Positions 31,015-63,779 of a stretch of 64,000 nt of DNA are shown in pieces. The notes under the pieces were generated by a model that made no database searches, was not told the DNA's origin, and worked only from the letters and a program-made list of their open reading frames with translations. Each line of letters starts with the position of its first letter. Position 1 is the stretch's first letter. A program made the position numbers and the translations under genes. Source of the DNA: an uncultured Pseudomonadota bacterium (GTDB lineage Bacteria > Desulfobacterota > Syntrophorhabdia > Syntrophorhabdales > CAYQXL01); contig CAZYVU010000010.1 in assembly GCA_964651435.1 (NCBI GenBank), positions 11,392-75,391 of the forward strand. Direction: 5' to 3'.

Positions 31015-34000
31015 ATGGGCCGCCGTCTTTGCTTGTTCACCTGGACAGTCATTGCTGTCATTTTCTTTACATTTCAGGCATACGCTCACGCGTCCGGCGT
31101 ACCCGGCGCGCCACAGGATGCGCTGGAGGACGCCAGCGACAACACCGTCTGGACGTGGGGCGCAAATTTCAGCGGCGAACTGGGGAATGGTACGTGGGAG
31201 CCCGGCACAAGAACCCCCGGCGAGCTGGCCGACTTTGCGGACGTAACATCCGTCGCCGCCGGCGACGCTTTCACGGTTGCCCTCAAATCGGACGGCACCG
31301 TCTGGACCTGGGGGAACAATGCGTTCGGCCAGCTCGGTGATGGGACGACAGTGAACAAGAATGTGCCGACCCAGGTGCCGACCCTCTCCGACATCATCGC
31401 GATGGCGGCCGGGCCGTATCACACCGTCGCCCTTACATCGGCCGGCACGGTCTGGGCCTGGGGCAGGAATGATTACGGTCAGGTCGGCGATGGGACGACG
31501 ACAAACCGGCTGAGCCCCGTCGTCGTCGCGGGCGTTACGGGGGTTACGGCCATTGCGGCCGGGTATGAGCACACCTTGGCAGTCAGATCGGACGGCACCG
31601 TCTGGACCTGGGGACGCAACAATGGCGGCCAGCTCGGTGACGGGACGACGACAAACCGGCTGAGCCCCGTCCAGGTGTCGGTGCTCACGGGCGCTGTGCG
31701 CTTGGCGGGCGGGGGCTGGCACTCCATGGCCCTCAAGTCGGACGGCACCGTCTGGACCTGGGGGTCGAACCTCCACGGCCAGTTGGGTGACGGCTCGTAC
31801 GACTGGAGCGTCATCCCCAAGGTGGTGCCTGGCTTCGCGGGCATAGCGAACATCGCATGCGGCGGCGACTACTCCATGGCCCTCAAGTCTGACGGCACCG
31901 TGTGGACCTGGGGTTTCGGCGGCCAAGGGTCTCTGGGGACGGGCGAGTGGACCAACAGGCTAAGCCCCGTTCAGGTGCCGGGGCTTACAGGCGTCGGAGG
32001 TGCCACCGCCAGGGCGTGCACGACAATAGCCTGGAAATCAGACGGTTCAGGCTTCTGGGCATGGGGCTGTAACGAAGCCGGCCAGTTCGGGGACGGCACA
32101 TTCGGATACCAGAATCCGAGCCCCACCGCCGTGTCGGCGCTTTCGGGCATCGCGACCATGGCAAGCGGCGCCGGTCACACGGTCGCCCTTGCAAACCCGG
32201 CACCGCCCTCGTCCTACATCCTCACCGTTGCCAAGTCGGGGACAGGAGCGGACGCCGTGACATCGTCTCCGGCTGGCATCGACTGCGGCGCCACGTGCAG
32301 CTATGTCTTTACGGCTGGAACGGTCGTCACGTTGACGGCGACCCCTGCCGCAGGCTCCATGTTCACCGGCTGGTCAGGCGGGGGCTGCTCGGGCACGGGA
32401 ACGTGCACGGTGACGCTTGATGCCGATGTTACGGTCACGGCAACCTTTGCAGCCATGCCGATCCTTACCGTTGCCACGTCAGGGACAGGGTCGGGAACGG
32501 TAACGTCGTCGCCGGCGGGCATCGACTGCGGCGCCACGTGCAGCTATGCCTTTACGGCTGGAACGGTCGTCACGTTGACGGCGACCCCTGCCGCAGGCTC
32601 CATGTTCACCGGCTGGTCAGGCGGGGGCTGCTCGGGCACGGGAACGTGCACGGTGACGATGAACAGCGCTACGGCCGTCACTGCAACCTTCGGCAATACG
32701 GCGGTCTTGACCCTCACGAGATTCGGTACCGGCCTGGGAACCGTCACGTCTTCCCCCGCGGGCATCATTTGCGGGAACACCTGCAGCGCCTCCTTCAGCC
32801 CCGGCTCCGTCGTTACCTTGACCGCAACGCCTGCGGCCGGTTCCACCTTTCTGGGCTGGCTTGGCGGCGGCTGCTCGGGCACGGGAACGTGCACGGTGAC
32901 GCCCGGCGCCGCCACGATGGTGGCCGCCATTTTCTCGTCTGCCGCAACGGGTAACATGGTCTGGGCATGGGGAGACAATTATTATTGTCAGATTGGTGAC
33001 GGGACGACGACGGACCGGCTGAGCCCCGTCCAGGTACCGGGGCTGACGGGCGTCGTGGCTGTTGCCGGAGGGGGCTATCACTCCATGGCCCTCACATCGG
33101 CCGGCACCCTATGGACCTGGGGACTCAATGAGGATGGTCAGCTCGGGGATGGGACAAGAACGCAGAGGTGCAGTCCTGTTCAGGTGCCAGGGCTTACCGG
33201 TGTTACGGCCATTTCGGGAGGTTGGGGTCACTCTCTGGCCGTGAAGGCTGACGGCACCGTCTGGGTATGGGGCGGCAACGGTTACGGTCAGCTTGGGGAT
33301 GGGACGACGACGGACCGGCTGAGCCCCGTCCAGGTACCGGGCATGGCGGGCGTTGTGGCCGCGGCTGGAGGCGGCTATCACTCCCTGGTGTTGACATCTG
33401 ATGGAACCGTATGGGCGTTCGGGCACAATACGAATGGCCAGCTCGGGGACGGCACAACGACGGACCGGCTGAGCCCCGTCCAGGTGCCGGGGCTGACGGG
33501 CATCGTGGCCGTAGCAGCAGGGGGCAGCTATTCTGCGGCCCTTAGATCGGATGGCACGGTCTGGGCATGGGGGGACAATTATTATTGCCAGATCGGGGAC
33601 GGGACGACGACGGACCGGTTGAGCCCCGTCCAGGTGCCGGGGCTGACGGACGTTGCCGGGATAGCGGGCGGCGATGCCCACGTTGTAGCAAAAAAGACGG
33701 ACGGCACCGCCAGGGCATGGGGATACAACGCTTACGGTCAGCTTGGGGATGGGACGACAACAAAGAGGTGCAGCCCCGTTCAGGTGTCGGGGCTGACAAA
33801 TGTTGCCGGCATGGCCGGGGGGTACGGGCACAGCCCGGCGCTCACATCAAGCGGTACCTTTTGGGCCTGGGGCCGCAATTTTAACGGTCAGCTTGGGGAT
33901 GGGACGACAACAAACAGATCAAGTCCTGGCCAGGTACCGGGGCTGACGGGAGGTCTCAGCGTTTCAGCGGGCTGGGAACACAGCATCGCCCTTCGGGCCG

Positions 34001-37000
34001 GTGAGACGCCCTCTTCCTACGCCCTTGCTGTCACAAGGACCGGTACCGGCGCGGGCGCGGTAGCCTCCTCCCCGGCCGGCATCGACTGCGGGGCCACCTG
34101 CAGCGCCTCCTTCAGCGCCGGCACCGTCGTTACCTTGACCGCAACGCCCGATGCCGGTTCCATCTTTACGGGCTGGTTGGGCAGCGGGTGCTCGGGCACG
34201 GGAACATGTACGGTGACACTGAACAGCAATACGGTGGTTGCCGCCCTCTTTTCACCGGAGGCAACCAGCAATGTGGTGTGGACCTGGGGACACAACGAAT
34301 ATGGCCAGCTCGGGGATGGAACGACGGCGGACAGACACAGCCCGATTGCTGTATCGGGCGTCACGAATGCCGTTGGGATTACCGGTGGGGATGCCCATAC
34401 GCTGGCTGTCACATCGGCCGGTACGGTCTGGGCGTGGGGGTGGAACCTCTATGGCCAGCTCGGGGACGGAACGACGGCGGACAGGCTGAGCCCCGTCCAG
34501 GTGCCGGGCATGGCGGGCGTTGCCGATGCTGGGGCCGGCGCCTCTCATACCGTCGCGGTGAAGTTCGACAGCACGGTCTGGGCCTGGGGAAGCAACAACT
34601 CCGGCCAAGTCGGGGACGGGACGACGACAAACAGGCTAAGCCCCGTTCAGGTGCCGGGGCTGACGGGTGTGGTGGCCATCGCGGCCGGTGGTTACCACTC
34701 CATGGCCCTCAAATCGGACGGGACCGTCTGGGCGTGGGGATGGAATGCATTCGGTCAAATCGGGGACGGGACGACGACAAACAGGCTAAGCCCCGTTCAG
34801 GTGCCGGGGCTGACGGGTGTGGTGGCCATCGCGGCCGGTGCTTACCACTCCATGGCCCTCAAATCGGACGGGACCATCTGGGCGTGGGGAGGAAATATGT
34901 ACGGCCAGGTCGGTGACGGGACAGTGACGGACAGGCTGAGTCCCGTTCAGGTGCCCGCCTTCACCGGTACTAAGGGTATTGCAGCGGGGGGCTTTCACTC
35001 TGTGGCCCTCAAATCGGATGGGACCATCTGGGCGTGGGGGGACAACACCCTGGGACAAATCGGGGACGGCACGACAACGGAACGGCGCAGTCCCGTTCAG
35101 GTGCCGGGCATGGCAGCAGTTGCACGAATCGGAGGCGGCGGCGGACACACGGTAGCCCTCGCGTCGAACGGCACCCTCTGGACTTGGGGCAACAACTCCA
35201 AGGGTCAGATCGGGGACGGAACGACGACGAACAGGCTGAGCCCCGTCCAGGTGCCGGGGCTGACGGCGGTTACGGGGATTGCCGGCGGGTGGAAGCACAC
35301 AATGGCCGTCAGGGCCGGAGGAGAGCCCACTTCCCACACCCTTACCGCCACAAGGACCGGTACCGGCGCGGGCGCGGTAGCCTCCTCCCCGGCCGGCATC
35401 GACTGCGGGGCCACCTGCAGCGCCTCCTTCAGCGCCGGCACCGTCGTTACCTTGACCGCAACGCCCGATGCCGGTTCCATCTTTACGGGCTGGTTGGGCA
35501 GCGGGTGCTCGGGCACGGGAACATGCACAATAACGCTCAGCGGCGACAGCATCGTCGTTGCCCTATTCTCACAGCAGGGAACGGATAGCAGCCTCTGGAC
35601 CTGGGGCAACAACGAGAATGGCCAGCTCGGGGACGGAACGACGACGAACAGGCTAAGCCCCGTTCAGGTGCCGGGGCTGACGGGTCTGCAAGGAACGGCG
35701 GGCGGAGCGGAACACTCAATGGCCCTGAAGTCGGACGGCACGGTCTGGGCATGGGGCAACAATTTCTACGGCCAGCTCGGGGATGGGACGACGACGGACA
35801 GCCTGAGCCCTATCCAGGTGCCGGGGCTCGCGGGCATAGTTGCCGTGGCAGCCGGGGACTATCACAGTGCGGCCTTGAAGTATGATGGTACGGTCTGGAC
35901 CTGGGGATCAAACGGCAACGGACAGCTCGGGGACGGTACGACGACGGACAGCCTGAGCCCTATCCAGGTGCCGGGGCTCGCGGGTGTCATCGACCTTGCG
36001 AGCGGCGGTTATCACATTGTGGCGCTCAAATCGGATGGCACGGTCCGGGCCTGGGGTTGGAACGAGGACGGCCAGATTGGGGACGGAACCACTACAGAGA
36101 GACTGAGCCCTGTCCAGGTGCCGGGGCTCGCGGGTGTTAAAGCTATCGCCACCGGCGACTATCATTCTATGGCCATCAAGTCCGACGGAACGGTCTGGGC
36201 CTGGGGCTGGAATGAGAATGGTCAACTTGGGGATGGGACGACGACGAACGGGCTGAGCCCTGTTCAGGTACCGGGGCTTGCGGGTATGACAGCAGTCGCT
36301 GGCGGGAACTCCCACACCGTTGCCCTAAAATCGGACGGTACGGTCTGGGCCTGGGGTTGGAACGAAGCGGGTCAGCTTGGGGACGGAACGACAACCCAGC
36401 GGCTGAGCCCTGTCCAGACAACGGGGCTGACGGGCGCTGTCACTGTCGCCACCGGCGGCTATCATTCCCTGGCCATCAAGTCGGACGGTACCCTCTGGAC
36501 CTGGGGCTGGAACGAGGACGGTCAACTTGGGGACGGGACGACGACGAACAGGCTGAGCCCTGTCCAGGTACCGGGGCTTGCGGGTATCGCGAAGATTGCC
36601 GCGGGATACGTCCATTCCCTTGCCCTCAAGTTTCCCTCCTCCTATATGCTCACCGTTACTAAGACGGGGGCCGGCACGGGCACCGTGACGTCGTCACCGG
36701 CGGGCATCGACTGCGGGGCCGTCTGCAGCGCCCAGTTCATCCAAACTACGGTCATTACCCTCACTGCCACGGCAGCATCCAACTCCTCCCTAACGGGCTG
36801 GTCAGGCTGTGACAGCACCCCTGCTGCAAACCAATGTGTGGTAACCATGAATGCCGCACGGTTTGTAGAAGCGTCATTCGCGCTGAAGACCTACGTCGTC
36901 ACCCCGTCTGCGGGCGCCAACGGCACGATGACACCTAACACGCCACAGACCGTCACCCATAACGCCACCACCTCTTTTACCGTTACCCCCGCCACGGGCT

Positions 37001-38571
37001 ACCACATCGACTCCGCAACGGGCTGCGGCGGGACCCTTTCGGGCTCCACCTACACCACGGGCCCCATCACCGCCGACTGCACGGTCAGTGCCACCTTTGC
37101 CATTAACACGTACACCATCTCCGCCTCCGTCTCCGGAGGCCACGGCACGGTCACCGTCGTAACCCCTACGGTTCCCCATGGCGGCACGGCTACTATTAAT
37201 ATTTCCCCCGACACGGGTTACCACATAGCAGGCATTACGGACAACGGCATCTCCGTGAGGATAATAAACCCCTACACCATCCAGAACGTCACGGCGGCCC
37301 ACACCATCGTCGCCACCTTTGAAGTGAACAGGTACACGCTCACGGCTACTACATCCGGACCGGGCACCGTAAGCGCCGCCGGCCTCATATGCTCCGGAAG
37401 CACGTGCACGGGCACGTATGATTACGGCACAACCGTGGCAGTGACGGCCGCACCCGCTGCGGGCTCCATGCTGAGCGGCTGGTCAGGCTGTGACAGCTCA
37501 TCGGGTAACACGTGTTCGGTGAGCATGACGTCCGACCGGAGTATCAGCGCAACCTTCATCGTTATCAAGACCTTGACCGTTTCCAAAGCCGGTTCCGGTA
37601 CCGTTGCCTCGGCCCCTCCGGGCATCGCTTGCGGCAGCGCCTGCAGTGCACCGTTCACGCCCGGCACCGTCGTAACGCTCACCCCAACTCCTGACACAGG
37701 GAATGTCTTTGCTTACTGGTCGGGGGCCTGCACGGGTAAGCTTGCGACCTGTCTTGTAACGATGGACGCCGACAAGACGGTGGGGGCCGTCTTCGTGCCG
37801 GCGAAAACAAAGACAGTAAAGCTCACCGTCACAAAGGTGAAGACAGCCAAAGGGGACGGCACCGTCGAGAGCAGCGACGGTACGATCAATTGCGGAAAGG
37901 ATTGCTCGGAACTTTTTTATCCCAATACACCCGTCCTTCTCCGCGCCACCCCCAACGCCGACTCGGTGTTTACCGGCTGGTCGGGCACAGGCATTACCTG
38001 TCCCGGTACGGGGACCTGCTCCGTTACCATGGACAAGGCCTATACGGTGAAGGCTACATTTGTCGGGCCGTCGCTTCTGAAGGTCCAAAAGGCCCCAAAG
38101 AACAAGGGAACGGGCGTCATCACCAGCAGCGACGGCGCCATTGACTGCGGAGAGGAGTGTCAGAAGAGTTATGTTTACAACACCGCCGTCACCCTGACGG
38201 CAACGCCTGATCCCGGCTCCGTCTTCATCTCCTGGACGGGCTGTGATGCTGTGTCGGCAAACGTGTGCACCTTTGCGATGAAAAAAGCGAGGACCGCCAA
38301 GGCCACTTTTGAAGGCCCCGTCATCGTCACGGTGACAAGGGCATACCAGAAGAAGGGCGCGGGGACCGTTACGTCTTCCCCGTCCGGCATCGACTGCGGA
38401 ACCACATGCAAGGCCGGGTTTACGAAGGGGACTGAGGTCACCCTGACGGCTACCCCTGCTGCCGGCTCGGTCTTTGGCGGCTGGTCAGGGGGCGGTTGTT
38501 CGGGGACGGGGACGTGTACCATCACCGCCGAGAAGACTACGACCGTGAGGGCGACGTTTATCGGGAGGTGA
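31015..38571 (+). CDS. Giant secreted protein: 4 x seven-bladed RCC1-like beta-propellers interleaved with 13 Ig-like (divergent InlB B-repeat-type) modules
   Basis: Signal-like N-terminus MGRRLCLFTWTVIAVIFFTFQAYAHA. There are 28 blades with the signature DGTVWxWGxNxxGQLGDGTTxxRxSPVQVxGL, counted 7+7+7+7. The modules are of the type GTVTSSPAGIDCGxxCS..TLTATPxxGSxFxGWSGxxCSGTGTCTVT. Confidence 0.9.
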   Translation: MGRRLCLFTWTVIAVIFFTFQAYAHASGVPGAPQDALEDASDNTVWTWGANFSGELGNGTWEPGTRTPGELADFADVTSVAAGDAFTVALKSDGTVWTWGNNAFGQLGDGTTVNKNVPTQVPTLSDIIAMAAGPYHTVALTSAGTVWAWGRNDYGQVGDGTTTNRLSPVVVAGVTGVTAIAAGYEHTLAVRSDGTVWTWGRNNGGQLGDGTTTNRLSPVQVSVLTGAVRLAGGGWHSMALKSDGTVWTWGSNLHGQLGDGSYDWSVIPKVVPGFAGIANIACGGDYSMALKSDGTVWTWGFGGQGSLGTGEWTNRLSPVQVPGLTGVGGATARACTTIAWKSDGSGFWAWGCNEAGQFGDGTFGYQNPSPTAVSALSGIATMASGAGHTVALANPAPPSSYILTVAKSGTGADAVTSSPAGIDCGATCSYVFTAGTVVTLTATPAAGSMFTGWSGGGCSGTGTCTVTLDADVTVTATFAAMPILTVATSGTGSGTVTSSPAGIDCGATCSYAFTAGTVVTLTATPAAGSMFTGWSGGGCSGTGTCTVTMNSATAVTATFGNTAVLTLTRFGTGLGTVTSSPAGIICGNTCSASFSPGSVVTLTATPAAGSTFLGWLGGGCSGTGTCTVTPGAATMVAAIFSSAATGNMVWAWGDNYYCQIGDGTTTDRLSPVQVPGLTGVVAVAGGGYHSMALTSAGTLWTWGLNEDGQLGDGTRTQRCSPVQVPGLTGVTAISGGWGHSLAVKADGTVWVWGGNGYGQLGDGTTTDRLSPVQVPGMAGVVAAAGGGYHSLVLTSDGTVWAFGHNTNGQLGDGTTTDRLSPVQVPGLTGIVAVAAGGSYSAALRSDGTVWAWGDNYYCQIGDGTTTDRLSPVQVPGLTDVAGIAGGDAHVVAKKTDGTARAWGYNAYGQLGDGTTTKRCSPVQVSGLTNVAGMAGGYGHSPALTSSGTFWAWGRNFNGQLGDGTTTNRSSPGQVPGLTGGLSVSAGWEHSIALRAGETPSSYALAVTRTGTGAGAVASSPAGIDCGATCSASFSAGTVVTLTATPDAGSIFTGWLGSGCSGTGTCTVTLNSNTVVAALFSPEATSNVVWTWGHNEYGQLGDGTTADRHSPIAVSGVTNAVGITGGDAHTLAVTSAGTVWAWGWNLYGQLGDGTTADRLSPVQVPGMAGVADAGAGASHTVAVKFDSTVWAWGSNNSGQVGDGTTTNRLSPVQVPGLTGVVAIAAGGYHSMALKSDGTVWAWGWNAFGQIGDGTTTNRLSPVQVPGLTGVVAIAAGAYHSMALKSDGTIWAWGGNMYGQVGDGTVTDRLSPVQVPAFTGTKGIAAGGFHSVALKSDGTIWAWGDNTLGQIGDGTTTERRSPVQVPGMAAVARIGGGGGHTVALASNGTLWTWGNNSKGQIGDGTTTNRLSPVQVPGLTAVTGIAGGWKHTMAVRAGGEPTSHTLTATRTGTGAGAVASSPAGIDCGATCSASFSAGTVVTLTATPDAGSIFTGWLGSGCSGTGTCTITLSGDSIVVALFSQQGTDSSLWTWGNNENGQLGDGTTTNRLSPVQVPGLTGLQGTAGGAEHSMALKSDGTVWAWGNNFYGQLGDGTTTDSLSPIQVPGLAGIVAVAAGDYHSAALKYDGTVWTWGSNGNGQLGDGTTTDSLSPIQVPGLAGVIDLASGGYHIVALKSDGTVRAWGWNEDGQIGDGTTTERLSPVQVPGLAGVKAIATGDYHSMAIKSDGTVWAWGWNENGQLGDGTTTNGLSPVQVPGLAGMTAVAGGNSHTVALKSDGTVWAWGWNEAGQLGDGTTTQRLSPVQTTGLTGAVTVATGGYHSLAIKSDGTLWTWGWNEDGQLGDGTTTNRLSPVQVPGLAGIAKIAAGYVHSLALKFPSSYMLTVTKTGAGTGTVTSSPAGIDCGAVCSAQFIQTTVITLTATAASNSSLTGWSGCDSTPAANQCVVTMNAARFVEASFALKTYVVTPSAGANGTMTPNTPQTVTHNATTSFTVTPATGYHIDSATGCGGTLSGSTYTTGPITADCTVSATFAINTYTISASVSGGHGTVTVVTPTVPHGGTATINISPDTGYHIAGITDNGISVRIINPYTIQNVTAAHTIVATFEVNRYTLTATTSGPGTVSAAGLICSGSTCTGTYDYGTTVAVTAAPAAGSMLSGWSGCDSSSGNTCSVSMTSDRSISATFIVIKTLTVSKAGSGTVASAPPGIACGSACSAPFTPGTVVTLTPTPDTGNVFAYWSGACTGKLATCLVTMDADKTVGAVFVPAKTKTVKLTVTKVKTAKGDGTVESSDGTINCGKDCSELFYPNTPVLLRATPNADSVFTGWSGTGITCPGTGTCSVTMDKAYTVKATFVGPSLLKVQKAPKNKGTGVITSSDGAIDCGEECQKSYVYNTAVTLTATPDPGSVFISWTGCDAVSANVCTFAMKKARTAKATFEGPVIVTVTRAYQKKGAGTVTSSPSGIDCGTTCKAGFTKGTEVTLTATPAAGSVFGGWSGGGCSGTGTCTITAEKTTTVRATFIGR
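32275..32658 (+). repeat. Intragenic direct repeat: two 141-nt copies (32275-32415, 32518-32658), 1 mismatch
   Basis: Read directly. The offset is 243 nt (81 codons). It covers adjacent Ig-like modules. Confidence 0.9.
34032..35525 (+). repeat. Intragenic long-range direct repeat: identical 177-nt blocks at 34032-34208 and 35349-35525
   Basis: Read directly. The offset is 1317 nt (439 codons). Both encode TRTGTGAGAVASSPAGIDCGATCSASFSAGTVVTLTATPDAGSIFTGWLGSGCSGTGTC. Confidence 0.85.
34610..34890 (+). repeat. Intragenic tandem repeat: two 131-nt copies (34610-34740, 34760-34890), 2 mismatches
   Basis: Read directly. The offset is 150 nt, which is one RCC1 blade. Confidence 0.85.
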
Positions 38572-42867: not shown

Positions 42868-43614
42868 CTACCGCCGGTTTACGCTCCGGAGGAGTGCCTC
42901 CTGTGCCTTGGGTGAAAGACCAAGGCCAGGCAGGTCCTTCCGCAGGGATTCGACAGTACCGAAGCCCCCCACGTATCCGTTGACCCGCGTAACGGCCGGG
43001 GAAGCAATAAAATCCTTAAGGTCCGGATACCTGGCATAGTATTCCTTCGCGATCTCCGGCCGGCCTCGCAGGTAATACTTCTGGTGGTAGTCCTCGGCAA
43101 GATAGAACTTGCGAAAGGGTACGACCTCCGTTTGGGCCTTGTGGCCCACTTTCTTTTCAAGCTGTCCCAAAAAGGCCGCGGCGGCCTTCTGCTGCTCGGC
43201 GCTGTGGTAAAAGATGACAGAGGCATACTGACGTGACCACGACCGGCTGAAGGGTTCGTGGCTGTCGGCAAAAACCTTAAGAAGCCCTTCATAGGTCACC
43301 CTTGCCGGGTCAAAGTCTATCTGAATCGTCTCGGAATGGTCACCCAAACTTCGGTAGGTTGGATTTTCTTTGGTCCCGCCGCTGTAGCCGACACGCGTCC
43401 TCACCACTCCATCGATAAGCCCGAACCGGGCATCGGGACCCCAAAATCACCCAAGGGCAAAGGTGGCTGTTTCAAGCGCCTTCTTTTCGCCGGCCCGGCT
43501 GTGGTCGACCACTCCTGGGAGCATAAGCATGCAGATGGCCGTGAGTCCAACAAGGGATAGGTGGGCCAAGAGGCTGCCCGGGGACTTTACCCTGATACGC
43601 AATCTGCTTTTCAT
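42868..43614 (-). CDS. msrA: Peptide methionine-S-sulfoxide reductase MsrA with in-frame UGA (selenocysteine) at the catalytic position and an N-terminal signal/anchor
   Basis: ORFs 43447..43725 and 42868..43407 are in the same frame and are separated only by TGA at 43447-43449. The read-through gives ..ETATFALG-U-FWGPDARFGLIDGVVRTRVGYSGG, i.e. the GCFWG active-site motif with U for C. The start MKSRLRIRV is at 43614. Confidence 0.8.
43413..43435 (-). promoter_or_regulatory. Candidate bacterial SECIS hairpin
   Basis: Minus-sense CGAUGCCCG-GUU-CGGGC-UU-AUCG begins 12 nt after the UGA codon. It has a GC-rich upper stem, a GU-containing apical loop and a UU bulge. Confidence 0.5.
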
Positions 43615-52985: not shown

Positions 52986-53960
52986 ATGAAGATTGTAACG
53001 TTGGAAGAGGGGTTTCTGACCCCGGATGTACTGAAGATATTTGGCGAGAAGGCCGACACAGATCCGTACACCATGAAGACTTCCGCCGCCCTCGTCGGCA
53101 CCAATGTGATGGAGGCGTATCTGGACCTGGGGGAAGGGCGGATTGCCGCCATGGACGAAGCGGGAATCGATATGCAGGTCCTTTCCTTTTCCGCGCCCCA
53201 GATTGCAGATACCGAGACGGCCATTCACATCATGACGGAGGCCAACGATAAGGCCGCAGAAGCCGTCAGCAAATATCCATCGCGATTTGCCGCCTTTGCA
53301 GCACTGACGGCAACGGATCCCTCGGCCGTCGTTACGGAATTTGAGCGGGTCTTGGCTAAGCCGGGCTTTGTGGGCGGATTCATCTGCGGAACCATGAACG
53401 GCGAATTCCTCGATGAGAGGAAATATTGGCCCATTCTTGAGTGCGCCGAGGCGCATCGTGCGCCCATCTATCTCCATCCGTATTTTCCTCTTCCCGGGGT
53501 TATGCAGACCTATTTCAAAGGGCGGGAAGAGCTATCGGCGCCGGTATGGGGCTTCATGGTCGACGCGAGCTGTCATTTTCTTCGGCTGCTGACGGCCGGG
53601 GTCTTTGACCAGTTCCCGGAACTGAAGATCATCCTGGGGCACCTCGGCGAATCGATCCCCTACAACCTTGACAGGATCAACACGCGCCTATCCGCCTTCG
53701 CACGCGAGAAGCTAAAAAGAAGCCCGGCGGACTATATTCTGAACAATCTGGTCATCACGACCAGCGGCAACTTCTCTCCTCAGTCGCTGCTATGCGCAAT
53801 GAACACGATCGGCGCAGACAATATTCTATTTTCGGCTGACTGGCCCAACGAATCGAACAAAACGGCCGTCGATTTCCTGGAACACCTGCCCGTCAGCAGA
53901 CCCGATCTGGAAAAGATTGCTTACAGGAACGCGGAACGGGTGCTCGGGTTAACGTCATAA
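52986..53960 (+). CDS. Amidohydrolase-2 (ACMSD-like decarboxylase/hydrolase) family protein
   Basis: Size and pattern (IDMQVLS.., YLHPYFP, ILGHLGE, FSADWP) are typical of PF04909-type TIM-barrel metal hydrolases. GGAGG RBS. Confidence 0.75.
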   Translation: MKIVTLEEGFLTPDVLKIFGEKADTDPYTMKTSAALVGTNVMEAYLDLGEGRIAAMDEAGIDMQVLSFSAPQIADTETAIHIMTEANDKAAEAVSKYPSRFAAFAALTATDPSAVVTEFERVLAKPGFVGGFICGTMNGEFLDERKYWPILECAEAHRAPIYLHPYFPLPGVMQTYFKGREELSAPVWGFMVDASCHFLRLLTAGVFDQFPELKIILGHLGESIPYNLDRINTRLSAFAREKLKRSPADYILNNLVITTSGNFSPQSLLCAMNTIGADNILFSADWPNESNKTAVDFLEHLPVSRPDLEKIAYRNAERVLGLTS

Positions 53961-54221
53961 GGGAGAGGGCCGCCTCGGACATCCTTTCGCTCATCTGCCA
54001 AGAACAAGTGCCAAACGGTCAGGTACTGGAGCGGCAAGTTCGCCGCTGCGATGTCCCGTTCCCTGGGGGAGTCGCGAGACACTCCTGATGGGCCGGCACC
54101 CGTTCTAAGAGATTGGGTTCGTACCAGAACCGCATGTCAAACCCACACCGTTGCCATAGTGGCAGTCCTGCGTTGCTACTGAGCCATCATCACAGCCTGT
54201 CATTCCGCTGCCCGTTGCTAC

Positions 54222-54368
54222 CTAGACCGTCGGCATACACCATCCCGAAGCCGAAACGCCATCTCCGTTGGAGCAGTGTCCATCATTGACCGCATCAGAA
54301 CCACTTATGCACTGTCCCACGGCGAGTCTACTGGAAAGCGAAATACATTGCGGCACTTCGTATCGCAT
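54222..54368 (-). CDS. Small Cys-periodic peptide (48 aa; continues in frame past a TAG to 54105)
   Basis: GGGGAG RBS then ATG at 54368, giving MRYEVPQCISLSSRLAVGQCISGSDAVNDGHCSNGDGVSASGWCMPTV. Cys residues fall at 8, 20, 32 and 44. A promoter-like element lies upstream. Confidence 0.45.
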   Translation of the reverse strand: MRYEVPQCISLSSRLAVGQCISGSDAVNDGHCSNGDGVSASGWCMPTV

Positions 54369-54407
54369 AGCTACTCCCCCTTTCCCCTTGACCTCATTGA
54401 AGAGCAA

Positions 54408-54521
54408 CGTATGTTTTGAAAATAGCAGCGATTTTACCGATCGTCAAGGGATAGTTTTCCCCTTCCCTGTTTCCCAATGCGTACAACAGAACTTTTTTCT
54501 GCGGTTAGAACCCGGTTAGAA
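54408..54521. repeat. 114-bp direct repeat, copy A (partner at 58555-58668)
   Basis: CGTATGTTTTGAAAATAGCAGCGATTTTAYCGATCGTYAAGGGATAGTTTTCCCC ... TTCTGCGGTTAGAACCCGGTTAGAA is shared. The ends are nearly identical and the middle is diverged. Weaker similarity extends ~37 bp further left in both copies. Confidence 0.9.
54419..54447 (-). promoter_or_regulatory. Putative sigma70-type promoter (TTGACG-N17-TATTTT) for the peptide gene
   Basis: On the minus strand the -35 is at 54447-54442 and the -10 at 54424-54419. Upstream are two TTCTAACCG direct repeats with 11-bp period (plus-strand CGGTTAGAA at 54502-54510 and 54513-54521). Confidence 0.45.
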
Positions 54522-54576
54522 TCTCTCTCCTGCACCAAAAACGTCCCGGGAACTTTCCCTGAGCCGTTGTCTGCGT

Positions 54577-54626
54577 TGGTTGCGGGGATTGGATTTGAAC
54601 CAATGACCATCGGGGATGAGCCGGTT
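54577..54626 (-). pseudogene. tRNA-fMet-like 3' half remnant (anticodon arm to CCA), no 5' half
   Basis: Minus-sense AACCGGCTCATCCCCGATGGTCATTGGTTCAAATCCAATCCCCGCAACCA. The T-arm ATTGG-TTCAAAT-CCAAT and the 3' end CCCCGCAACCA mirror the initiator tRNA 3' end. A CAT anticodon lies in a degenerate loop. No matching CGCGGGG 5' strand occurs within 350 nt. Confidence 0.6.
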
Positions 54627-55065
54627 AAGTGACCTTAAATCAAGCAATGACAGGTATCGCGAGGAGAGACCACGACTTACCCCTGCTCTACGGTGTGTCG
54701 TGAGATTGGTCTTTGTGGATGACAAAAAGACATTTTTCAGGAATACTCAAAATGGTATAGTTTTGGATATCAATAATGCCGACGGACTCTCTATATGAAC
54801 GCGGGCTCAAGGGAAAGAGTTGCCCATGCATATTAGATTAAAGATCCGGGAGCCCTCCGGGATTGTTGGTATCTACAAGAAGCGCTCACTATACCTATCC
54901 ATGACGGGGTACCGATAATTATGCCCGAAATGAAAGAAGATCTGTCGGTTGAGTCTTCAGAGGAGGATTAGGTTTTGTCCGTAGAAACCGAAGACCCCAT
55001 TGGGACAAACGCCTGAGGCTTATTCAACAATTGGTTGCGGCTCATTGCAGAGACAGGAGGAATCC

Positions 55066-57432
55066 ATGGATAAAGACATCACTCAGGGTCGGTTTGACGG
55101 CCTGTCGCGTCGAAGATTTCTTGCAATGCTGGGGGCTGCCGGCGCAACTCTTGCTGCATACAAGATCGGTGCAAAGAGGGCGTCTGCCGCCGAGAGTATT
55201 GAACCCGTTTCCGTTCAGGACGTACAACAGGGCGAGGACATCTTTGCATACATAAAGAGAATGAAAGGCGGTTTTGATCAGAGATTCTTCCAGCAGGTTA
55301 TCGGCGCCGCCAATGAGTTCAAAGAAGGAGACTTGACGATCGGAGTAGGTGCTAAGGATGACGCTGCCCGTCACAATGCCCGCGCTCTTCTGTCGAGCAC
55401 GAAGATCAAAGACCTCTATGAGCATCCCCTTCTCGTAGACAGCCTCCAGAAATTGATCTGGCAGACTACCGACCAGGCCCGGTATGCCGAGATTAAAGAG
55501 TGGACCATGGGGCGGTTGAAAGAATTTCTCCTTACACAGCCCGAGGTCGAGATTAAAGCCATTATGGCTGGTCTCACAAGCGACACCATCGGCTGCGTGC
55601 CCAAGCTGATGACCAATGAAGAGCTTATAAAACTGAGTCAAAAGATCTTCAACGTGCTGCCCGGCGCCAAAATAGGGGCAAAAGGCTACATGGGCGCCCG
55701 CATCCAGCCCAATTCACCAACAGACCATCCCGATGATGTGGCGTGGCAGGTTTTTGACGCATTTTCCTATGCAACTGGTGATATCGTCATCGGGACCAAC
55801 CCCGTCGACAGCCAGGTCAAGAATAACCTTGCGGTGCAAAAGACCCTCAGAGAGATTGTGGAAGCATTCCAACTCCAGGATACGATCCCCTGGTGCGTGC
55901 TTGCCCATATCGACGTGCAGGCAGAGGTGAGAAAACAATATCCCGGAATGGTCGAAACGATGTTCCAAAGCATCGCCGGAACGGATGACTGCAACAAGAC
56001 CTTCGATGTCACCGTTGATAAGATTCTGCATTATGCGAGATCGAAGAGGGGCGAAAGATACGGGCTTTACTTCGAGACAGGGCAGGGTTCCGAGTTCACC
56101 AACGGGGCGGCAAAGGGCGTCGATATGATGGTGCTCGAGTCCCGTAAATACGGTTTTTCCAGGGCCGTCGGCATGGAGCTGGCCAAAGTTCAGCCCAAAG
56201 GCGCCTGGCTCCACGTCAATGATGTGGCAGGCTTTATCGGGCCTGAAGTCTTCAAGACACGCGATCAATTGGTGCGGTGCTGCCTTGAAGACCTGGCAAT
56301 GGGCAAACTCCATGGACTGACTATCGGCCTCGATATTTGTTCCACCCTTCACATGACAGTGAGTTTGGATGATCTGGATTGGTGCCAGGATCAGATCATG
56401 CCGGCTAACCCCGTGTACCTCATTGCGCTGCCTACCAAGAACGATCCCATGCTTGGGTATCTGACAACGGCCTTTCAGGACCATGTTCGCTTGAGAGATA
56501 GATTCGGCTATAAAGTTGACGATGCAATGTGGAGTTTCTATAAAAGGATCGGGATCGTCGATAAGAACAACGGATATACAGGCCATTTCGGGGATCCGCT
56601 CTGGGTCTATTACCAGTATTGTCTTGCCAAGGAAGACGCACGCTCGAAGGACGCCATCTATGCCGAGGGGAAACGAAAAATGAAAGAGGTGGAGGAGAGA
56701 GGCGTTGATTTGGCCACCGGTCATGGCAAACATCTCTGGGATCTCAATCCCGAACTGGCGGCCAAAGTTACAACGCTCTACCATGATGCAAAAAAATGTA
56801 TCCGGACGGAACTCACCCCCGAGTTCGTAAAAACAATACCCAATGCGTTGCCGATCAAGACTCTATCCGGGAGCCGCGATGAGTACATTTCCCACCCCGA
56901 AACAGGTGAAAAGTTACGCCCTCAGTCGATAACGGCCCTGGTAAAACTGAGAGATTCCTGGGTAGACCCGGCTAACCCGGTCAAAGGCCAAATCGTCATT
57001 TCCGACGGTCTGAACGCCAACGCCATTATGGACGAGAACCACCTTGCCCCGTATCTCGCTGAAATACGAAAACTCTTTGCCGAGGCCGGCGTTACGCTGA
57101 GCAATACAAACATCGTCGTCACCGGAGGAAGGGTCCGCGCAGGATACAGGATTGGGGAGCTGCTCTTTGAAAAGTCGAACGCCAACGAGTTTAGAGCCGT
57201 CCTGCACATCATCGGCGAACGGCCCGGAACCATGCATCATTCCTATTCCGTCTACATCACGGTTGTAAGGGGCAGCGTGTGGGCGCAGAAAAAAATCGAC
57301 CATGACATAACAAAGGTCGTCTCCAATATCGCCGATACGGCCTTACCGCCCAAGGAAGCGGCTCGGGAGACGTTGATGATCATACGGGAGCTGGTAGGGA
57401 AAGAAGCCCATAACAGCCGCCGCCTCCGCTGA
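55066..57432 (+). CDS. Ethanolamine ammonia-lyase-like EutB-EutC fusion with an N-terminal twin-arginine (Tat) signal
   Basis: Tat signal SRRRFLAMLGAAGATLAA...ASAAE. The EutB part has ARIQPN, GDIVIGTNPV, VLAHI, LYFETGQGSEF, GFIGPEV and YLTTAFQDH. The EutC part has VISDGLNANAI, GGRVRAGYRIGELL, IIGERPG and VSNI. AGGAGG RBS before the ATG at 55066. Confidence 0.85.
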   Translation: MDKDITQGRFDGLSRRRFLAMLGAAGATLAAYKIGAKRASAAESIEPVSVQDVQQGEDIFAYIKRMKGGFDQRFFQQVIGAANEFKEGDLTIGVGAKDDAARHNARALLSSTKIKDLYEHPLLVDSLQKLIWQTTDQARYAEIKEWTMGRLKEFLLTQPEVEIKAIMAGLTSDTIGCVPKLMTNEELIKLSQKIFNVLPGAKIGAKGYMGARIQPNSPTDHPDDVAWQVFDAFSYATGDIVIGTNPVDSQVKNNLAVQKTLREIVEAFQLQDTIPWCVLAHIDVQAEVRKQYPGMVETMFQSIAGTDDCNKTFDVTVDKILHYARSKRGERYGLYFETGQGSEFTNGAAKGVDMMVLESRKYGFSRAVGMELAKVQPKGAWLHVNDVAGFIGPEVFKTRDQLVRCCLEDLAMGKLHGLTIGLDICSTLHMTVSLDDLDWCQDQIMPANPVYLIALPTKNDPMLGYLTTAFQDHVRLRDRFGYKVDDAMWSFYKRIGIVDKNNGYTGHFGDPLWVYYQYCLAKEDARSKDAIYAEGKRKMKEVEERGVDLATGHGKHLWDLNPELAAKVTTLYHDAKKCIRTELTPEFVKTIPNALPIKTLSGSRDEYISHPETGEKLRPQSITALVKLRDSWVDPANPVKGQIVISDGLNANAIMDENHLAPYLAEIRKLFAEAGVTLSNTNIVVTGGRVRAGYRIGELLFEKSNANEFRAVLHIIGERPGTMHHSYSVYITVVRGSVWAQKKIDHDITKVVSNIADTALPPKEAARETLMIIRELVGKEAHNSRRLR

Positions 57433-57487
57433 GAATACATGCAAGGCCGAAGGCACAGGCCAAGGCGGTGAACAGAGGAAGCCGGCA

Positions 57488-58519
57488 ATGAAAGAAGAGG
57501 CGCAGATGAATGCCCTTTGTGTATCAATTGTTTTCGCATTATTTCTGGCAGGTTTTGCCATCCCCGGCGACTCGTACGGAAAAGATGAGGCGGTGCGGTA
57601 TGCTGTTGTGGACAACCACATCCACTTCCTCGATTTTGTCCAGGAAACGGACGGCTTCGAACGGCTCATTCAGGCCATGGACAAGGCCGGCGTTGAGAAG
57701 GCGGTCATCTTCGGTGTGCCGGTCGTAAAAACCTGGACAGAGGCAGACCCGGTTCGGCCGGTCTACTACCTTGACACGGATTCTCCCGCTTACTATTTCA
57801 GCGGCACAGACTTCATCCTTGCCCACGACCTCTCACGGCAACCGCCCGAGGTAAGGAGAAGATTCTTCCCCTTTCTGTGCGGATTCAACCCCGTAGACAT
57901 GAACGCTGCAAAGCAGATCGAGTTGATGCTGAAGACGTACCCGGGGTTCTGGAGGGGCATCGGCGAGATCATGTCTCGCCACGACGAATTGACCGCCTTC
58001 ATCCATGGTCAGACCCCCCGTGCGGACCACCCGGCGCTGATGCTCGTCTACAAGTTTGCAGCCGCTCAAGGGCTCCCCGTTCTTATCCACCATAACATCT
58101 CCTCCGCCCGGAAGGAAGATCCTATCTATTTGAGAGAACTGGAGCATGCCATACGGGAAAATCCCCGGACGGTCTTTATCTGGGCGCATGGCGGTATCTC
58201 GCGGCGCCTTGAGGTCCCCTCTTTGCTCACCGATCTCAGGAGAATGCTATCGGCTTACCCGAACCTCTCCATCGATATCTCGTGGGTCATTTACCCTGAC
58301 TATATAGCAAAAGACAAAGAATCAATGGCGAGGTGGGTCGCTTTCATAGAAGAGTTCCCGGACAGGGTCGTGATCGGCTCCGATATGGTCGGGCACTGGA
58401 AAACATATCCCCGGGAAATCATGAAGTACTACCGCCTGCTCGACTCCCTCAAGCCCGCCACGGCGGAGAAAGTTGCGAGAAGCAACATCCTGCGCCTCCT
58501 CGGCGAGAAGGCTCCTTAG
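57488..58519 (+). CDS. Periplasmic amidohydrolase (TIM-barrel metal-dependent hydrolase)
   Basis: Sec-type signal NALCVSIVFALFLAGFAIPG. VVDNHIHFLDF (HxH metal motif), LIHHN, FIWAHGG and VIGSDM. Confidence 0.8.
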   Translation: MKEEAQMNALCVSIVFALFLAGFAIPGDSYGKDEAVRYAVVDNHIHFLDFVQETDGFERLIQAMDKAGVEKAVIFGVPVVKTWTEADPVRPVYYLDTDSPAYYFSGTDFILAHDLSRQPPEVRRRFFPFLCGFNPVDMNAAKQIELMLKTYPGFWRGIGEIMSRHDELTAFIHGQTPRADHPALMLVYKFAAAQGLPVLIHHNISSARKEDPIYLRELEHAIRENPRTVFIWAHGGISRRLEVPSLLTDLRRMLSAYPNLSIDISWVIYPDYIAKDKESMARWVAFIEEFPDRVVIGSDMVGHWKTYPREIMKYYRLLDSLKPATAEKVARSNILRLLGEKAP

Positions 58520-58554
58520 CTGCTCCCCCTTCCCTCCATTTCATTAAGGAGTAC

Positions 58555-58668
58555 CGTATGTTTTGAAAATAGCAGCGATTTTATCGATCGTTAAGGGATA
58601 GTTTTCCCCCTCTCTGCACGTCAATGCATACAAGAAAACTTCTTTCTGCGGTTAGAACCCGGTTAGAA
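58555..58668. repeat. 114-bp direct repeat, copy B
   Basis: See copy A. It carries the same promoter-like hexamers (TTAACG-N17-TATTTT on minus, 58594-58566), pointing antisense into the amidohydrolase gene. Confidence 0.9.
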
Positions 58669-58673
58669 CAGGA

Positions 58674-59204
58674 TCACTTCCCCGGCAGCGTGTAGGTCCA
58701 GGTAAAATCGCTAAAGACCCGTGCAGCCTCTTTTTCTCCTGGCGGGAAATTTCTGCCCGTAGCAGAGCCCGTTCCTTTGATCCCTTCAAAACGTCCTGTC
58801 CCTTTGACGAATTCGCTGGTAGTCTTGGCGGAGTAAGTTCCGCTGCTGTCGGGAACGAGCAGCCGCTTGCTTCGGTTGACGACGGTGGAACCATCATCGA
58901 AGGTCCAAATGTTGTACGTGATTGCCTGAGAACTTTTTCCCGGCATCATGTCGATAACGCTGTGGCTTCTCAGCTTTGCCACGTCTCCGTTCTCGAAGAA
59001 CGCCAAGCCTTCATATACTGCCAACTCAAGGTGATGCCCGGGTTCGTCGTTCACTGCGATTGTCTCGTCTTTCGTAGCCGTGGCGACACTCCTCCCCTTA
59101 AGCGTCTCGGCCGCCTGCGCCAGAGCGCCAAGCAGGAAGCCTGCTATAACCACGATGCTTATGAAACCCAGAACTGCGCCCTTCGCCTTCATTCCTCTCT
59201 TCAT
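58674..59204 (-). CDS. Secreted hypothetical protein (176 aa)
   Basis: Strong RBS GAAAGGAGGAAGAACC before the ATG at 59204. Signal peptide AVLGFISIVVIAGFLLGALAQA. No diagnostic motif. Confidence 0.65.
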   Translation of the reverse strand: MKRGMKAKGAVLGFISIVVIAGFLLGALAQAAETLKGRSVATATKDETIAVNDEPGHHLELAVYEGLAFFENGDVAKLRSHSVIDMMPGKSSQAITYNIWTFDDGSTVVNRSKRLLVPDSSGTYSAKTTSEFVKGTGRFEGIKGTGSATGRNFPPGEKEAARVFSDFTWTYTLPGK

Positions 59205-59463
59205 GGTTCTTCCTCCTTTCTCGGTTAACACTCAGAAAACATATTCTTCCCGCATACCGCTCAATGGAAACGAGAATCGCCGAAGCCGGTAGGGGGTGCA
59301 GAATAACTCTTGTCGATCGGTCACAGCCTCTATTTCTTGCACTCCCGATATCGTTCTCGAAGTATAACTCAACTTGTTGGTGGGTGCGTGATTGATAATG
59401 GCGTGAGAAATGAATTTGTCAATATCATGTCACTGCGCCACAGATGCAAACCATTCTCCTCGA

Positions 59464-59612
59464 AAGGCAGGCCTCCATCATGTCTCGCTTCACAGCGCCA
59501 GACATACCAGCGCCGGCATGAGGACACATGCAGGCCAGAACATCAAGCGCGTATCGAGTCAGTTGGGGCATGCTTCGATCAAGAGATCACCCTCGACACC
59601 TACAGCAACCCG
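59464..59612 (+). pseudogene. Tyrosine recombinase/integrase C-terminal remnant, frameshifted
   Basis: KAGLHHVSLHSARHTSAG..AGQNIKRVSSQLGHASIK is read in one frame, followed by ITLDTYSNP in the -1 frame. This matches the box II region (H-x-x-R-H-T ... LGHasi..T..tY) of phage-type integrases. No N-terminal part is present. Confidence 0.65.
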
Positions 59613-59815
59613 TCTCAAGGTGTAGCGTCCATCAAGCAGCAGGTGGAGCTGCTGGGGGGATCGCAGCCACATCGAAAGAGGGCGACAAGTCCCAAGTTCA
59701 TTCTCCATTGATATGACCAAATACAGGAGCAGGCCAACCCGGACAGTTGCATCGGCGGATCAGGCGACGAGGCTCAGAGCATCAAGAAGCCTGAACCAGG
59801 GTGGATTGTCGACTT

Positions 59816-62156: not shown

Positions 62157-63779
62157 TAGGAGCCTGTCGGACTTTTCCCGTCCAATAACCATCGTAATAG
62201 GTTATAATCATTCATCTTTAAAGCAACTACCCCCAGGAGCGTACGAGAATGAGTGTGCGGTTTGTCGACTGCGATCGAGCCACCCCCTACTTACTTCCTC
62301 CCTCACTGGAAGACTGGCTGCCCGAAGGCCATCTTGCCAGGTTTGTGGTGGAGATTGTGGAACGCCTTGACCTTCGTTCAATACGAGACTCCTATACCGG
62401 CCGGGGGTCTTACCCCTACGAGCCTGCGATGCTCGCAGCGCTGCTTTTCTACGGCTACGCAATGGGAGTGTTCTCCAGCAGAAAGCTGGAGGCGAGCACC
62501 TATGATTCTGTTGCATTCCGGTACATTGCCGCCAACAGTCACCCCGATCACGACACCATCGCCAGTTTCCGGAAGAGATTCCTGCCGGAACTGGAAAGCC
62601 TCTTTACGCAGATCCTTGCCATTGCAGGACAGATGGGGGTTCTCAAGCTGGGGGCCGTGAGTCTCGATGGCACGAAGGTGAAGGCAAATGCATCCAAACA
62701 TAGGGCGCTCAGTTATGGTCATGCGACCGTGCTTGAGGAGCAATTGAGGGCTGAGGTTGCCGACCTGATGCGACGGGCGGAAGCTGCCGACGAGACGGAC
62801 ATTCCCGACGGCATGAGCATTCCCGAAGAGCTGGCCCGACGGGAAAAGCGGCTCACGGCAATTGCCCAAGCGAAGGCCGAGATCGAGCGACGGGCCCAAG
62901 AGCGCCATGCCGCTCAAGCGGAAGCCTATGCGAACAAGGTGGCCGAGCGGGTGAAGCAGGAGCACGCTACCGGCAAGAAGCCTAACGGTCCGGCGCCGCA
63001 GGCGCCCCTTCCGGGCCCTACCGCCAAAGACCAGGTGAACCTGACCGACGGCGAATCGCGGATCATGCCCGCATCGAACGGCTTCACACAGGCCTATAAC
63101 GCCCAGGCTGCTGTGGATGTGGGTTCCATGCTCATCGTTACCGGACAGATAAGCCAGCACCCCAATGATAAACAGGAGCTGAAGCCGATGCTCGACGCCA
63201 TTGCCTGCCTGCCCGATGCGCTTGGCGCAATCGGCGTCCTGCTTGCCGACAGCGGTTATTTCAGCGAAGCGAACGTGGCGGGCTGCGAAGCAAGGAAGAT
63301 AACCCCCTACATCGCCCCGGGCCGTGAAGCCCACAATCAGTCACTCGTGGAACGATTTACCGAACCGCCCCCCATTCCCTGTGAGGCCGATTGCGTCACT
63401 ACGATGCGACACCGGCTCAAGACGGCTGCCGGCAAAGCGCTCTATGCCCTCCGGAAGAGCACGGCGGAACCGGTGTTCGGGATTATCAAATCGGTGATGG
63501 GGTTCCGCTCTTTTCTCCTGCGTGGTGTTACGGCCGTGAGCGGCGAATGGAACCTGGTATGTATCGCCTGGAACCTGAAGCGGCTTCACGCATTACAGAG
63601 GTAAGAGGAAGTAGATGAGAAGCTCTTCACCAAACACCGCCTACTCTACGGCAGCGAGCAGCGGGCTGAAACAAATGGGGAACAGATGACCGGCACAGAA
63701 GGTGCGCGCGCTCCTTTTTTGAGACGATGACAGTATTCCTGGATGGAGCTATCAAGACTTCAAGTCCGACAGGCTCCTA
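62157..63779 (+). mobile_element. IS1182-family (IS5-like DDE) insertion sequence, apparently intact
   Basis: 18-bp terminal inverted repeats TAGGAGCCTGTCGGACTT (62157-62174) and its complement (63762-63779) enclose a single transposase ORF. Confidence 0.85.
62249..63604 (+). CDS. IS1182 family transposase
   Basis: The N-terminal LLPPSLEDWLPEGHLARFV..YTGRGSYPYEPAMLAALLFYGY..SSRKLE is characteristic of IS1182/IS5-type transposases. The C-terminal DDE region has LADSGYFS and EPVFGIIK. Confidence 0.9.
   Translation: MSVRFVDCDRATPYLLPPSLEDWLPEGHLARFVVEIVERLDLRSIRDSYTGRGSYPYEPAMLAALLFYGYAMGVFSSRKLEASTYDSVAFRYIAANSHPDHDTIASFRKRFLPELESLFTQILAIAGQMGVLKLGAVSLDGTKVKANASKHRALSYGHATVLEEQLRAEVADLMRRAEAADETDIPDGMSIPEELARREKRLTAIAQAKAEIERRAQERHAAQAEAYANKVAERVKQEHATGKKPNGPAPQAPLPGPTAKDQVNLTDGESRIMPASNGFTQAYNAQAAVDVGSMLIVTGQISQHPNDKQELKPMLDAIACLPDALGAIGVLLADSGYFSEANVAGCEARKITPYIAPGREAHNQSLVERFTEPPPIPCEADCVTTMRHRLKTAAGKALYALRKSTAEPVFGIIKSVMGFRSFLLRGVTAVSGEWNLVCIAWNLKRLHALQR

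Follow-up and report, generated by a model that had tools for sequence, protein, structure and literature searches.

Integration at the 3' ends of tRNA genes, flanking direct repeats, and tandem arrays with subsequent deletion are established for integrative elements (PMC5812530). Left and right attachment-site junctions (attL/attR) at tRNA genes with tandem accretion and decay are exemplified by ICESt1-related elements and SXT/R391 arrays, and the attachment-site (att) repeats are typically 10–60 bp long (PMC5812530). Here, we analyzed 64,000 nucleotides of DNA (the window) from an uncultured bacterium of the desulfobacterotal lineage Syntrophorhabdales (assembly GCA_964651435.1, contig CAZYVU010000010.1, positions 11,392 to 75,391 of the forward strand), in which two direct repeats, termed R1, bracket the genes of an EutB-EutC fusion protein and an amidohydrolase. 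A first-pass annotation had regarded R1 as a regulated promoter duplicated around an inserted cassette. As judged from its sequence, R1 does not look like a duplicated regulated promoter; it resembles the inner portion of a longer junction module of an attachment site.

The locus resembles attL/attR elements in that the 3' part of a tRNA lies within its direct repeats, and a block of perfect identity starts inside the tRNA. Furthermore, integrase remnants, an insertion sequence (IS), and cargo genes are located between the repeats, and several related junctions follow in series. It differs from them by a far longer homology (at least 228 nt at about 85% identity vs 10–60 bp), by the lack of an intact tRNA or integrase gene in 71 kb, and by one junction copy being split by 12.5 kb. 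A second group of described systems consists of heterobivalent tyrosine integrases with arm-type sites, namely, lambda Int (sites P'1-3), the integrase of Tn916, and IntDOT of CTnDOT. Finally, some prophages carry a surrogate 3' end of their target gene, as is the case for e14 and phage 21 in icd and for HP1 in a tRNA operon; their repeats are long because the element brings a replacement for the displaced sequence.

R1 was delimited by repeat finding and BLAST to positions 54368-54521 (copy a) and 58517-58668 (copy b), which are 84.4% identical over 154 nt with one indel of 2 nt. The 114-bp segments described initially (54408-54521 and 58555-58668) are nested in this longer repeat and are identical at 101 of 114 positions. 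Only two copies, both in direct orientation, were found in the window, and no inverted partner was detected there. A perfectly conserved 29-mer and a perfectly conserved 25-mer each occur exactly twice in the 64-kb window and never in 100 shuffles. Conserved ends and a diverged middle had also been described correctly: perfect runs of 29, 26, and 17 nt were determined, and the positions at which the copies differ are clustered (P = 0.004 for the three longest runs summed, P = 0.012 for the top two), the longest run taken alone being not significant (P = 0.08). The features of the two R1 copies are the following:

54368..54521, minus strand: R1 copy a, comprising two TTCTAACCG units and a promoter-like block, followed by a 5' leader that contains GGGGGAG and ends at ATG 54368
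54502..54521, minus strand: direct repeat TTCTAACCG-GG-TTCTAACCG of copy a, a proposed integrase arm-type site, 55 nt from the 3' end of the tRNA fragment
54419..54447, minus strand: sigma-70-like -35/-10 of copy a, TTGACG 54442-54447, 17 nt, TG-extended TATTTT 54419-54424
58517..58668, minus strand: R1 copy b, 84% identical to copy a, between the stop of the amidohydrolase-2 gene and the stop of a gene encoding a 176-amino acid (aa) protein (58674)
58649..58668, minus strand: direct repeat TTCTAACCG-GG-TTCTAACCG of copy b, starting 5 nt beyond the stop codon of the gene for the 176-aa protein; homology to copy a ends exactly there
58566..58594, minus strand: sigma-70-like -35/-10 of copy b, TTAACG 58589-58594, 17 nt, TATTTT 58566-58571, antisense into amidohydrolase-2

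The order of elements in copy a is TTCTAACCG-GG-TTCTAACCG, a diverged stretch of 30 nt, a 55-nt block with the promoter-like site, a diverged leader, GGGGGAG, and ATG. Only two differences between the copies are found in the 55-nt block, and the layout of copy b equals that of copy a except for TTAACG at -35 and AAG at the position of ATG. R1 homology ends at this start-codon position, where copy a carries a strong Shine-Dalgarno sequence GGGGGAG and ATG; the complement of the AAG spot in copy b supplies the TAG stop codon of amidohydrolase-2 (58517-58519), which is located inside the repeat. Copy b occupies the gap between two convergent genes, those of amidohydrolase-2 (stop 58519) and of the 176-aa protein (stop 58674), and no plausible open reading frame (ORF) was found on the minus strand beyond it. 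The minus-strand motifs on which the first-pass annotation was based, i.e., -35/-10 hexamers with a 17-nt spacer and two TTCTAACCG units at 11-bp phase, are present in both copies. Likewise, copy a is located directly upstream of a Cys-periodic ORF and copy b points antisense into the amidohydrolase gene, as stated there. The predicted promoter (TTGACG, 17 nt, TATTTT with TG) matches the consensus at 9 of 12 positions with a spacer in the range of 16–18 nt; promoter-like matches occur in the region at chance frequency, with four found and 3.9 expected from shuffles.

Several other origins of R1 were considered and rejected. Miniature inverted-repeat transposable elements, IS ends, and target-site duplications are characterized by terminal inverted repeats, a short target duplication, and many copies, and R1 consists of two direct copies. 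Rfam gave no match for a structured RNA in R1 at gathering scores, nor at E up to 10 over positions 53900-55100; fold z-scores were between -2.07 and +1.01, neither strand gave a convincing fold, and different structures were predicted for the two copies, which argues against a riboswitch or small RNA. The two amidohydrolases of the region, amidohydrolase-1 and amidohydrolase-2, share no significant similarity, and a larger duplication of an amidohydrolase gene plus flank was rejected on these grounds; in the DNA to the left of copy a, no amidohydrolase or integrase remnant was detected. A coding origin of the conserved block was rejected as well: the frame containing FENSSDF yielded only chance matches to PAS domains and is interrupted by a stop in copy b.

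The duplicated unit is not a mere promoter, as copy a continues through a spacer into a fragment of an initiator tRNA-Met (tRNA-fMet). A second direct repeat, R2, comprises this region:

54575..54622, minus strand: 3' part of an initiator-type tRNA-Met, consisting of an anticodon-arm remnant, T arm, acceptor strand, and CCA; not an intact tRNA
54525..54597, minus strand: R2 copy a, formed by the spacer and the terminal 21 nt of the tRNA; positions 54557-54597 constitute a 41-nt block of perfect identity
about 71130-71203 in extended coordinates (contig L077, 87-160), outside the window: R2 distal copy, 85% identical to 54525-54597

The fragment at 54575-54622 matches annotated tRNA-Met genes at about 84%, and the stem changes in its T arm are fully compensated, as read from the sequence. 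ARAGORN called no tRNA in the window, and the fragment was not matched by Rfam, whether at gathering scores or with E values of up to 10. For the longer tRNA fragment, no second copy was found, and the phage and plasmid collections match the tRNA part only. The distal repeat copies, located beyond the window, rest on a single same-species contig (L077/L080), which is 99.98% identical to the window over an overlap of 5352 nt and reaches 7.3 kb past the window end. R2 extends over 74 nt at 85% identity; its 41-nt perfect block (54557-54597 = 71163-71203) starts in the T loop and ends 20 nt beyond the tRNA end. When the distal piece is joined to copy b, it is collinear with the contiguous copy a with a gap of only 3 nt. 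Because the joined pieces reproduce copy a, copy b is the same unit in a split form: a segment of 12.46 kb (58669-71129) intervenes precisely where the 9-bp repeats end on their outer side. The repeat unit is at least 228 nt long and consists of a tRNA tail, a spacer of about 55 nt, the 9-bp repeats, and a promoter-like end. Both R1 and R2 are direct repeats that bracket an insert, and R2 contains the 41-nt block of perfect identity, as expected of att junctions. The tRNA remnant had been noticed before and is real; it had been counted as part of the cassette, but it belongs to the repeat unit, since its continuation has an 85% copy of its own at about 71.2 kb. The distal tRNA-tail copy (L077 87-160) includes 21 nt of the tRNA; upstream of it, no tRNA body is present, only a GCTGGAT tandem duplication.

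A third pair of repeats, R3, is formed by remnants of tyrosine integrase genes:

59461..59655, plus strand: C-terminal pseudogene fragment of a tyrosine integrase (R3 copy a)
about 67550-67742 in extended coordinates (contig L080, 8902-9094), outside the window, same orientation: R3 partner fragment, 81% identical

The distal fragment (about 67.5 kb) matches PF00589 with E = 3e-11. The fragment in the window is weak when taken alone (PF00589, E = 0.006, 16.9 bits, under the 27.1-bit cut-off); it was identified mainly by 74% identity to the distal fragment and 66% identity to the integrase encoded at a locus of a Syntrophorhabdaceae genome (L031). Three direct-repeat pairs of similar identity are located within 17 kb, namely, R1 (84%), R2 (85%), and the integrase fragments of R3 (81%).

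The motif CGGTTAGAA-N2-CGGTTAGAA was searched in a genome collection with one genome per species, and 41 loci were found there, with two more in a viral collection. By our own calculation, about 17 matches are expected in the genome collection for 18 fixed bases at equal base frequencies. None of the 41 genome loci shares more than the 20-nt motif with R1. At several loci of unrelated genomes, the motif was found 55–90 nt past a tRNA 3' end or adjoining a tyrosine integrase gene. At L025, an intact tRNA-Leu ends 63 nt before it, and the site is at the edge of a prophage-like region containing protease and capsid genes. It overlaps the last integrase codons at L034 and L035, where a tRNA 3' fragment follows about 70 nt further, whereas L054 carries four to five motif copies at 11-bp phase, 28 nt after the integrase stop and followed by a tRNA fragment; the distance between motif and tRNA fragment at these three loci is 70–90 nt. 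The motif is about 20 nt away from the integrase stop codon at L053 and L082 (viral), and L082 has one motif copy on each side of a tRNA-like core, an attP-like arrangement. At L031, the motif is located 165 nt upstream of the integrase gene, and this integrase is 66% identical to both fragments of our locus, over 80 aa for the one at 67.5 kb (E = 3e-29) and over 41 aa for the one at 59.5 kb. The distance from the motif to T-arm-like sequence is 69 nt at L031 vs 66 nt in the window. Wherever the motif is accompanied by a tRNA or tRNA fragment, the two have the same relative orientation as their counterparts in the window.

We estimated that a random site would be located less than 200 nt from an integrase gene or less than 100 nt from a tRNA end in well under 1% of cases. 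Six to seven of the 43 motif loci, from about four lineages, have such a neighbor; therefore, the association is real. At L025, L031, L034, L035, L053, L054, and L082, the motif appears to be placed as arm repeats are, at a fixed distance from the core that is common to elements with the same integrase. Since it recurs next to tRNA 3' ends and tyrosine integrases, with one of the same subfamily among them, the TTCTAACCG repeat is probably an integrase arm-type site, which explains it better than the response-regulator-like site proposed by the first-pass annotation. Like the arm sites of lambda, Tn916, and CTnDOT, the candidate site comprises at least two direct repeats of 9–11 bp, spaced by about one helical turn and located tens of bp from the predicted core; furthermore, the motif adjoins the integrase gene where relatives are intact (L034, L054, and L082). 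Unlike those arm sites, the motif of our locus has no adjacent integrase gene.

Scans of viral contigs for the tRNA tail, the spacer, and the promoter block revealed nothing related, and no L031-type integrase was found in these contigs. A literature search for the 9-mer CGGTTAGAA returned primer sequences only. Clusters of five to seven GGTTAGAA-type repeats were observed in other mobile or regulatory settings, at L083 8405-8500 (an actinophage-like contig), at L049 about 5900-6000 upstream of an AlbA_2-like gene, and at L054 6975-7040 downstream of the integrase gene.

Our favored explanation, to which we assign a probability of roughly 0.55, is that related elements targeting tRNA-fMet accreted in tandem and then decayed, with EutBC and amidohydrolase-2 as cargo. 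The bracketed genes look acquired also in our analysis, as the first-pass annotation had suggested. Along the tRNA strand, the module would consist of the tRNA-fMet 3' fragment, a spacer of about 55 nt, two 9-bp arm repeats (TTCTAACCG twice), and an element end of 128 nt carrying an inward-facing promoter-like site. Elements with the same type of integrase would have integrated successively into one tRNA-fMet gene, each contributing a tRNA-proximal junction in which core, spacer, arm repeats, and element end follow one another. The earlier junction would be displaced by a later integration, with only the tRNA 3' part remaining attached to it. Copy a may thus represent the displaced tRNA-proximal junction of an older element, EutBC and amidohydrolase-2 the cargo of the next element located between the two junctions, and copy b the junction of this next element itself, in which the spacer would later have become separated from the arm repeats by 12.5 kb of mobile-element debris. 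Selection would have acted on the perfectly conserved blocks (core, arm repeats, and promoter/operator) while the elements were active.

A number of observations weigh against this explanation. Neither an intact tRNA-fMet nor a full-length integrase gene was found in the 71 kb made up by the window and its extension, and no tRNA 5' half adjoins the distal tRNA-tail copy. Transposon-like ends are missing at the split in copy b. Neither integrase genes nor any other locus resembled the 128 nt that adjoin the arm repeats. The same-species contigs L001-L015 and L067 are all collinear with the window without any deletion junction, and this identical arrangement gives no sign of excision. The link between motif and integrases is based on about four independent lineages, and among 48 hits of a less stringent motif scan of viral contigs, there was almost no association with integrases; for this reason, many motif hits are to be regarded as chance or as other tandem repeats. 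The length of the repeats recalls the surrogate-end prophages e14, phage 21, and HP1, in which long imperfect direct repeats (more than 100 nt) also flank the insert. Unlike these, the duplication at our locus extends about 200 nt past the tRNA into non-coding DNA with no obvious need for restoration.

The same long homology of at least 228 nt at about 85%, exceeding the 10–60 bp typical of att repeats (PMC5812530), would suit a Campbell-type homologous insertion, in which a circle from a related strain brought in its own tRNA-downstream region together with EutBC and amidohydrolase-2, so that the repeats would be host flank. Such an event would resemble a specialised transducing element integrating through captured flanking DNA, and it is in line with a cassette that has no integrase of its own according to Pfam and shows no sharp break in base composition. 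However, it leaves unexplained why, in unrelated phyla, the 9-bp repeat is found next to integrases and equally far from tRNA ends and why integrase fragments of the same subfamily are present in the locus; we consider it improbable. Doubtful to us is also a neutral relic without present function, whose patchy conservation would result from short gene-conversion tracts or chance. In favor of such a relic, the repeat is present in just two copies, neither the start codon nor a downstream ORF is retained in copy b, the peptide ORF contains stop codons, and significance is not reached by the longest perfect run taken singly (P = 0.08); nevertheless, the differences cluster significantly when the top two (P = 0.012) or top three runs (P = 0.004) are considered, and the conserved blocks coincide with recognizable sites, i.e., the arm repeats and the promoter-like block.

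The idea closest to the first-pass annotation is a native sigma-70 promoter with a response-regulator site of the Cys-peptide gene that was duplicated by recombination of the cassette, both copies being active and copy b reading antisense over amidohydrolase-2 and EutBC. A -35 hexamer, 17 nt, and a TG-extended -10 hexamer together with two 9-bp repeats at 11-bp phase were kept in both copies while the middle diverged, copy a provides a strong Shine-Dalgarno sequence with ATG, and the homology ends at the start codon. Two direct repeats with a periodicity of 11 bp upstream of -35/-10 are indeed reminiscent of PhoB/OmpR boxes. Unlike such boxes, they are located about 50 nt upstream of -35 and have no cognate regulator nearby: among 30 ORFs scanned between 19.5 and 64 kb, no DNA-binding (winged-helix) response regulator was found. 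Neither are there further TTCTAACCG-motif sites in the 64-kb window, and elsewhere, the motif is associated with integrases and tRNAs. Moreover, the repeat unit reaches into the tRNA fragment, copy b is split, promoter-like matches are at chance frequency, and the ORF to be driven is an orphan with nonsense codons. A native promoter is, therefore, an unlikely origin of R1. Very unlikely, in our opinion, is a domesticated module in which copy b is a live promoter/operator giving rise to antisense RNA over an exported amidohydrolase-EutBC operon, copy a acts antisense toward amidohydrolase-1, and both are controlled by one TTCTAACCG-binding protein, either an integrase arm-binding domain or a response regulator. 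If true, this would be a case of domestication, with a former attachment-site arm serving as a shared regulatory switch for two amidohydrolase loci.

Leftover attachment-site repeats are an ordinary kind of genome scar. If elements accreted at tRNA-fMet, as we favor, the EutBC protein with its twin-arginine signal and the exported amidohydrolase would be marked as a horizontally acquired cargo pair in a decayed stack of islands. The candidate arm-site motif (CGGTTAGAA twice, about 55–90 nt from a tRNA end) occurs in Clostridia, in an acidobacterial genome, and in a Syntrophorhabdaceae genome; if it is bound by integrase, it could help to locate the attachment sites of one integrase subfamily. 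A neat pattern of promoter and regulator box seen in sequence alone can be the arm of a recombination site, and caution is needed in this respect.

Genes located between and next to the repeats are listed below:

55066..57432, plus strand: EutB-EutC fusion (Pfam) with an N-terminal SRRRFL twin-arginine motif, between the repeats
57488..58519, plus strand: amidohydrolase-2, an Amidohydro_2 protein (Pfam) with a hydrophobic N-terminus; its stop codon TAG is in copy b
58674..59204, minus strand: conserved hypothetical protein of 176 aa, first gene of the 12.46-kb segment splitting copy b
62249..63604, plus strand: IS transposase (DUF772 / DDE_Tnp_1), inside the segment splitting copy b

Pfam confirmed EutB, EutC, and Amidohydro_2, and the cassette of EutBC and amidohydrolase bracketed by direct repeats was, hence, recognized correctly at first sight. 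The EutB-EutC fusion starts with a twin-arginine sequence of the type SRRRFLAML...ASA, and the adjacent Amidohydro_2 protein has a signal-like hydrophobic N-terminus (55066-58519). An exported enzyme resembling ethanolamine ammonia-lyase, which would depend on adenosylcobalamin, would be unusual. A full-text literature search combining both terms revealed no paper on such an exported enzyme. The 12.46-kb segment that splits copy b contains the 176-aa gene, a lytic transglycosylase gene, a 171-aa gene, the IS transposase gene, and the two C-terminal fragments of tyrosine integrases, and also several hypothetical genes, a phosphatase gene, a hydrolase gene, and a SnoaL-like gene. Homologues of the 176-aa protein in other genomes are found among transposases and integrases.

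Downstream of copy a, one further ORF was examined:

54222..54368, minus strand: ORF of 48 codons with a Cys period of 12; its coding status is doubtful

Cys residues are located at positions 8, 20, 32, and 44, and TAG at 54222-54224 forms codon 49; the periodic frame runs on past this TAG to 54105, with Cys at every tenth residue there. TAG also terminates amidohydrolase-2. A word-index search found no homologues of the Cys-periodic ORF, and an exhaustive search found only two low-complexity repeat proteins. It is not annotated as a gene in public contigs, and the only strain differences within its 48 codons are P46A in one contig and a change of W43 to TAG in another. Because of the missing homologues, the in-frame TAG, and the second TAG in one strain, the ORF looks unconstrained; it may be a decaying gene or non-coding sequence.

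The organism is known from metagenome contigs only. Searches for a relative carrying R1 by flanking-gene homologues, motif scan, and metagenome scan found none; the metagenome scan with a 20-mer returned the same species (L067) and chance hits only. The homologues detected for the 176-aa protein (at most 73% identity) and for amidohydrolase-1 (at most 84%) are located in unrelated contexts, and no repeat, Cys peptide, or tRNA was found near them. The nearest named relative of amidohydrolase-1 belongs to a deltaproteobacterial metagenome-assembled genome. Several independent assemblies break right after copy b (58649-58703), in the integrase-fragment repeat (59493), or past the distal tRNA-tail repeat, and a 98% variant of the 176-aa gene is located on a separate short contig (P0001). 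These assembly breaks and the gene variant suggest that strains are heterogeneous here. In public contig L002, the terminal 118 nt (13004-13121) are unrelated to the locus, and L002 is probably a chimeric assembly that breaks inside EutBC.

Two further observations were made elsewhere in the window. An ORF at 42868-43407 on the minus strand resembles MsrA, fits the Pfam profile from position 23 only, and also gives a hit to the helical domain named after selenoprotein MsrA; an upstream in-frame UGA encoding selenocysteine is possible. Positions 31015-38571 encode a protein of 2518 aa, which consists almost entirely of RCC1 repeats (at least 28) and contains 13 InlB B-repeat-like domains.

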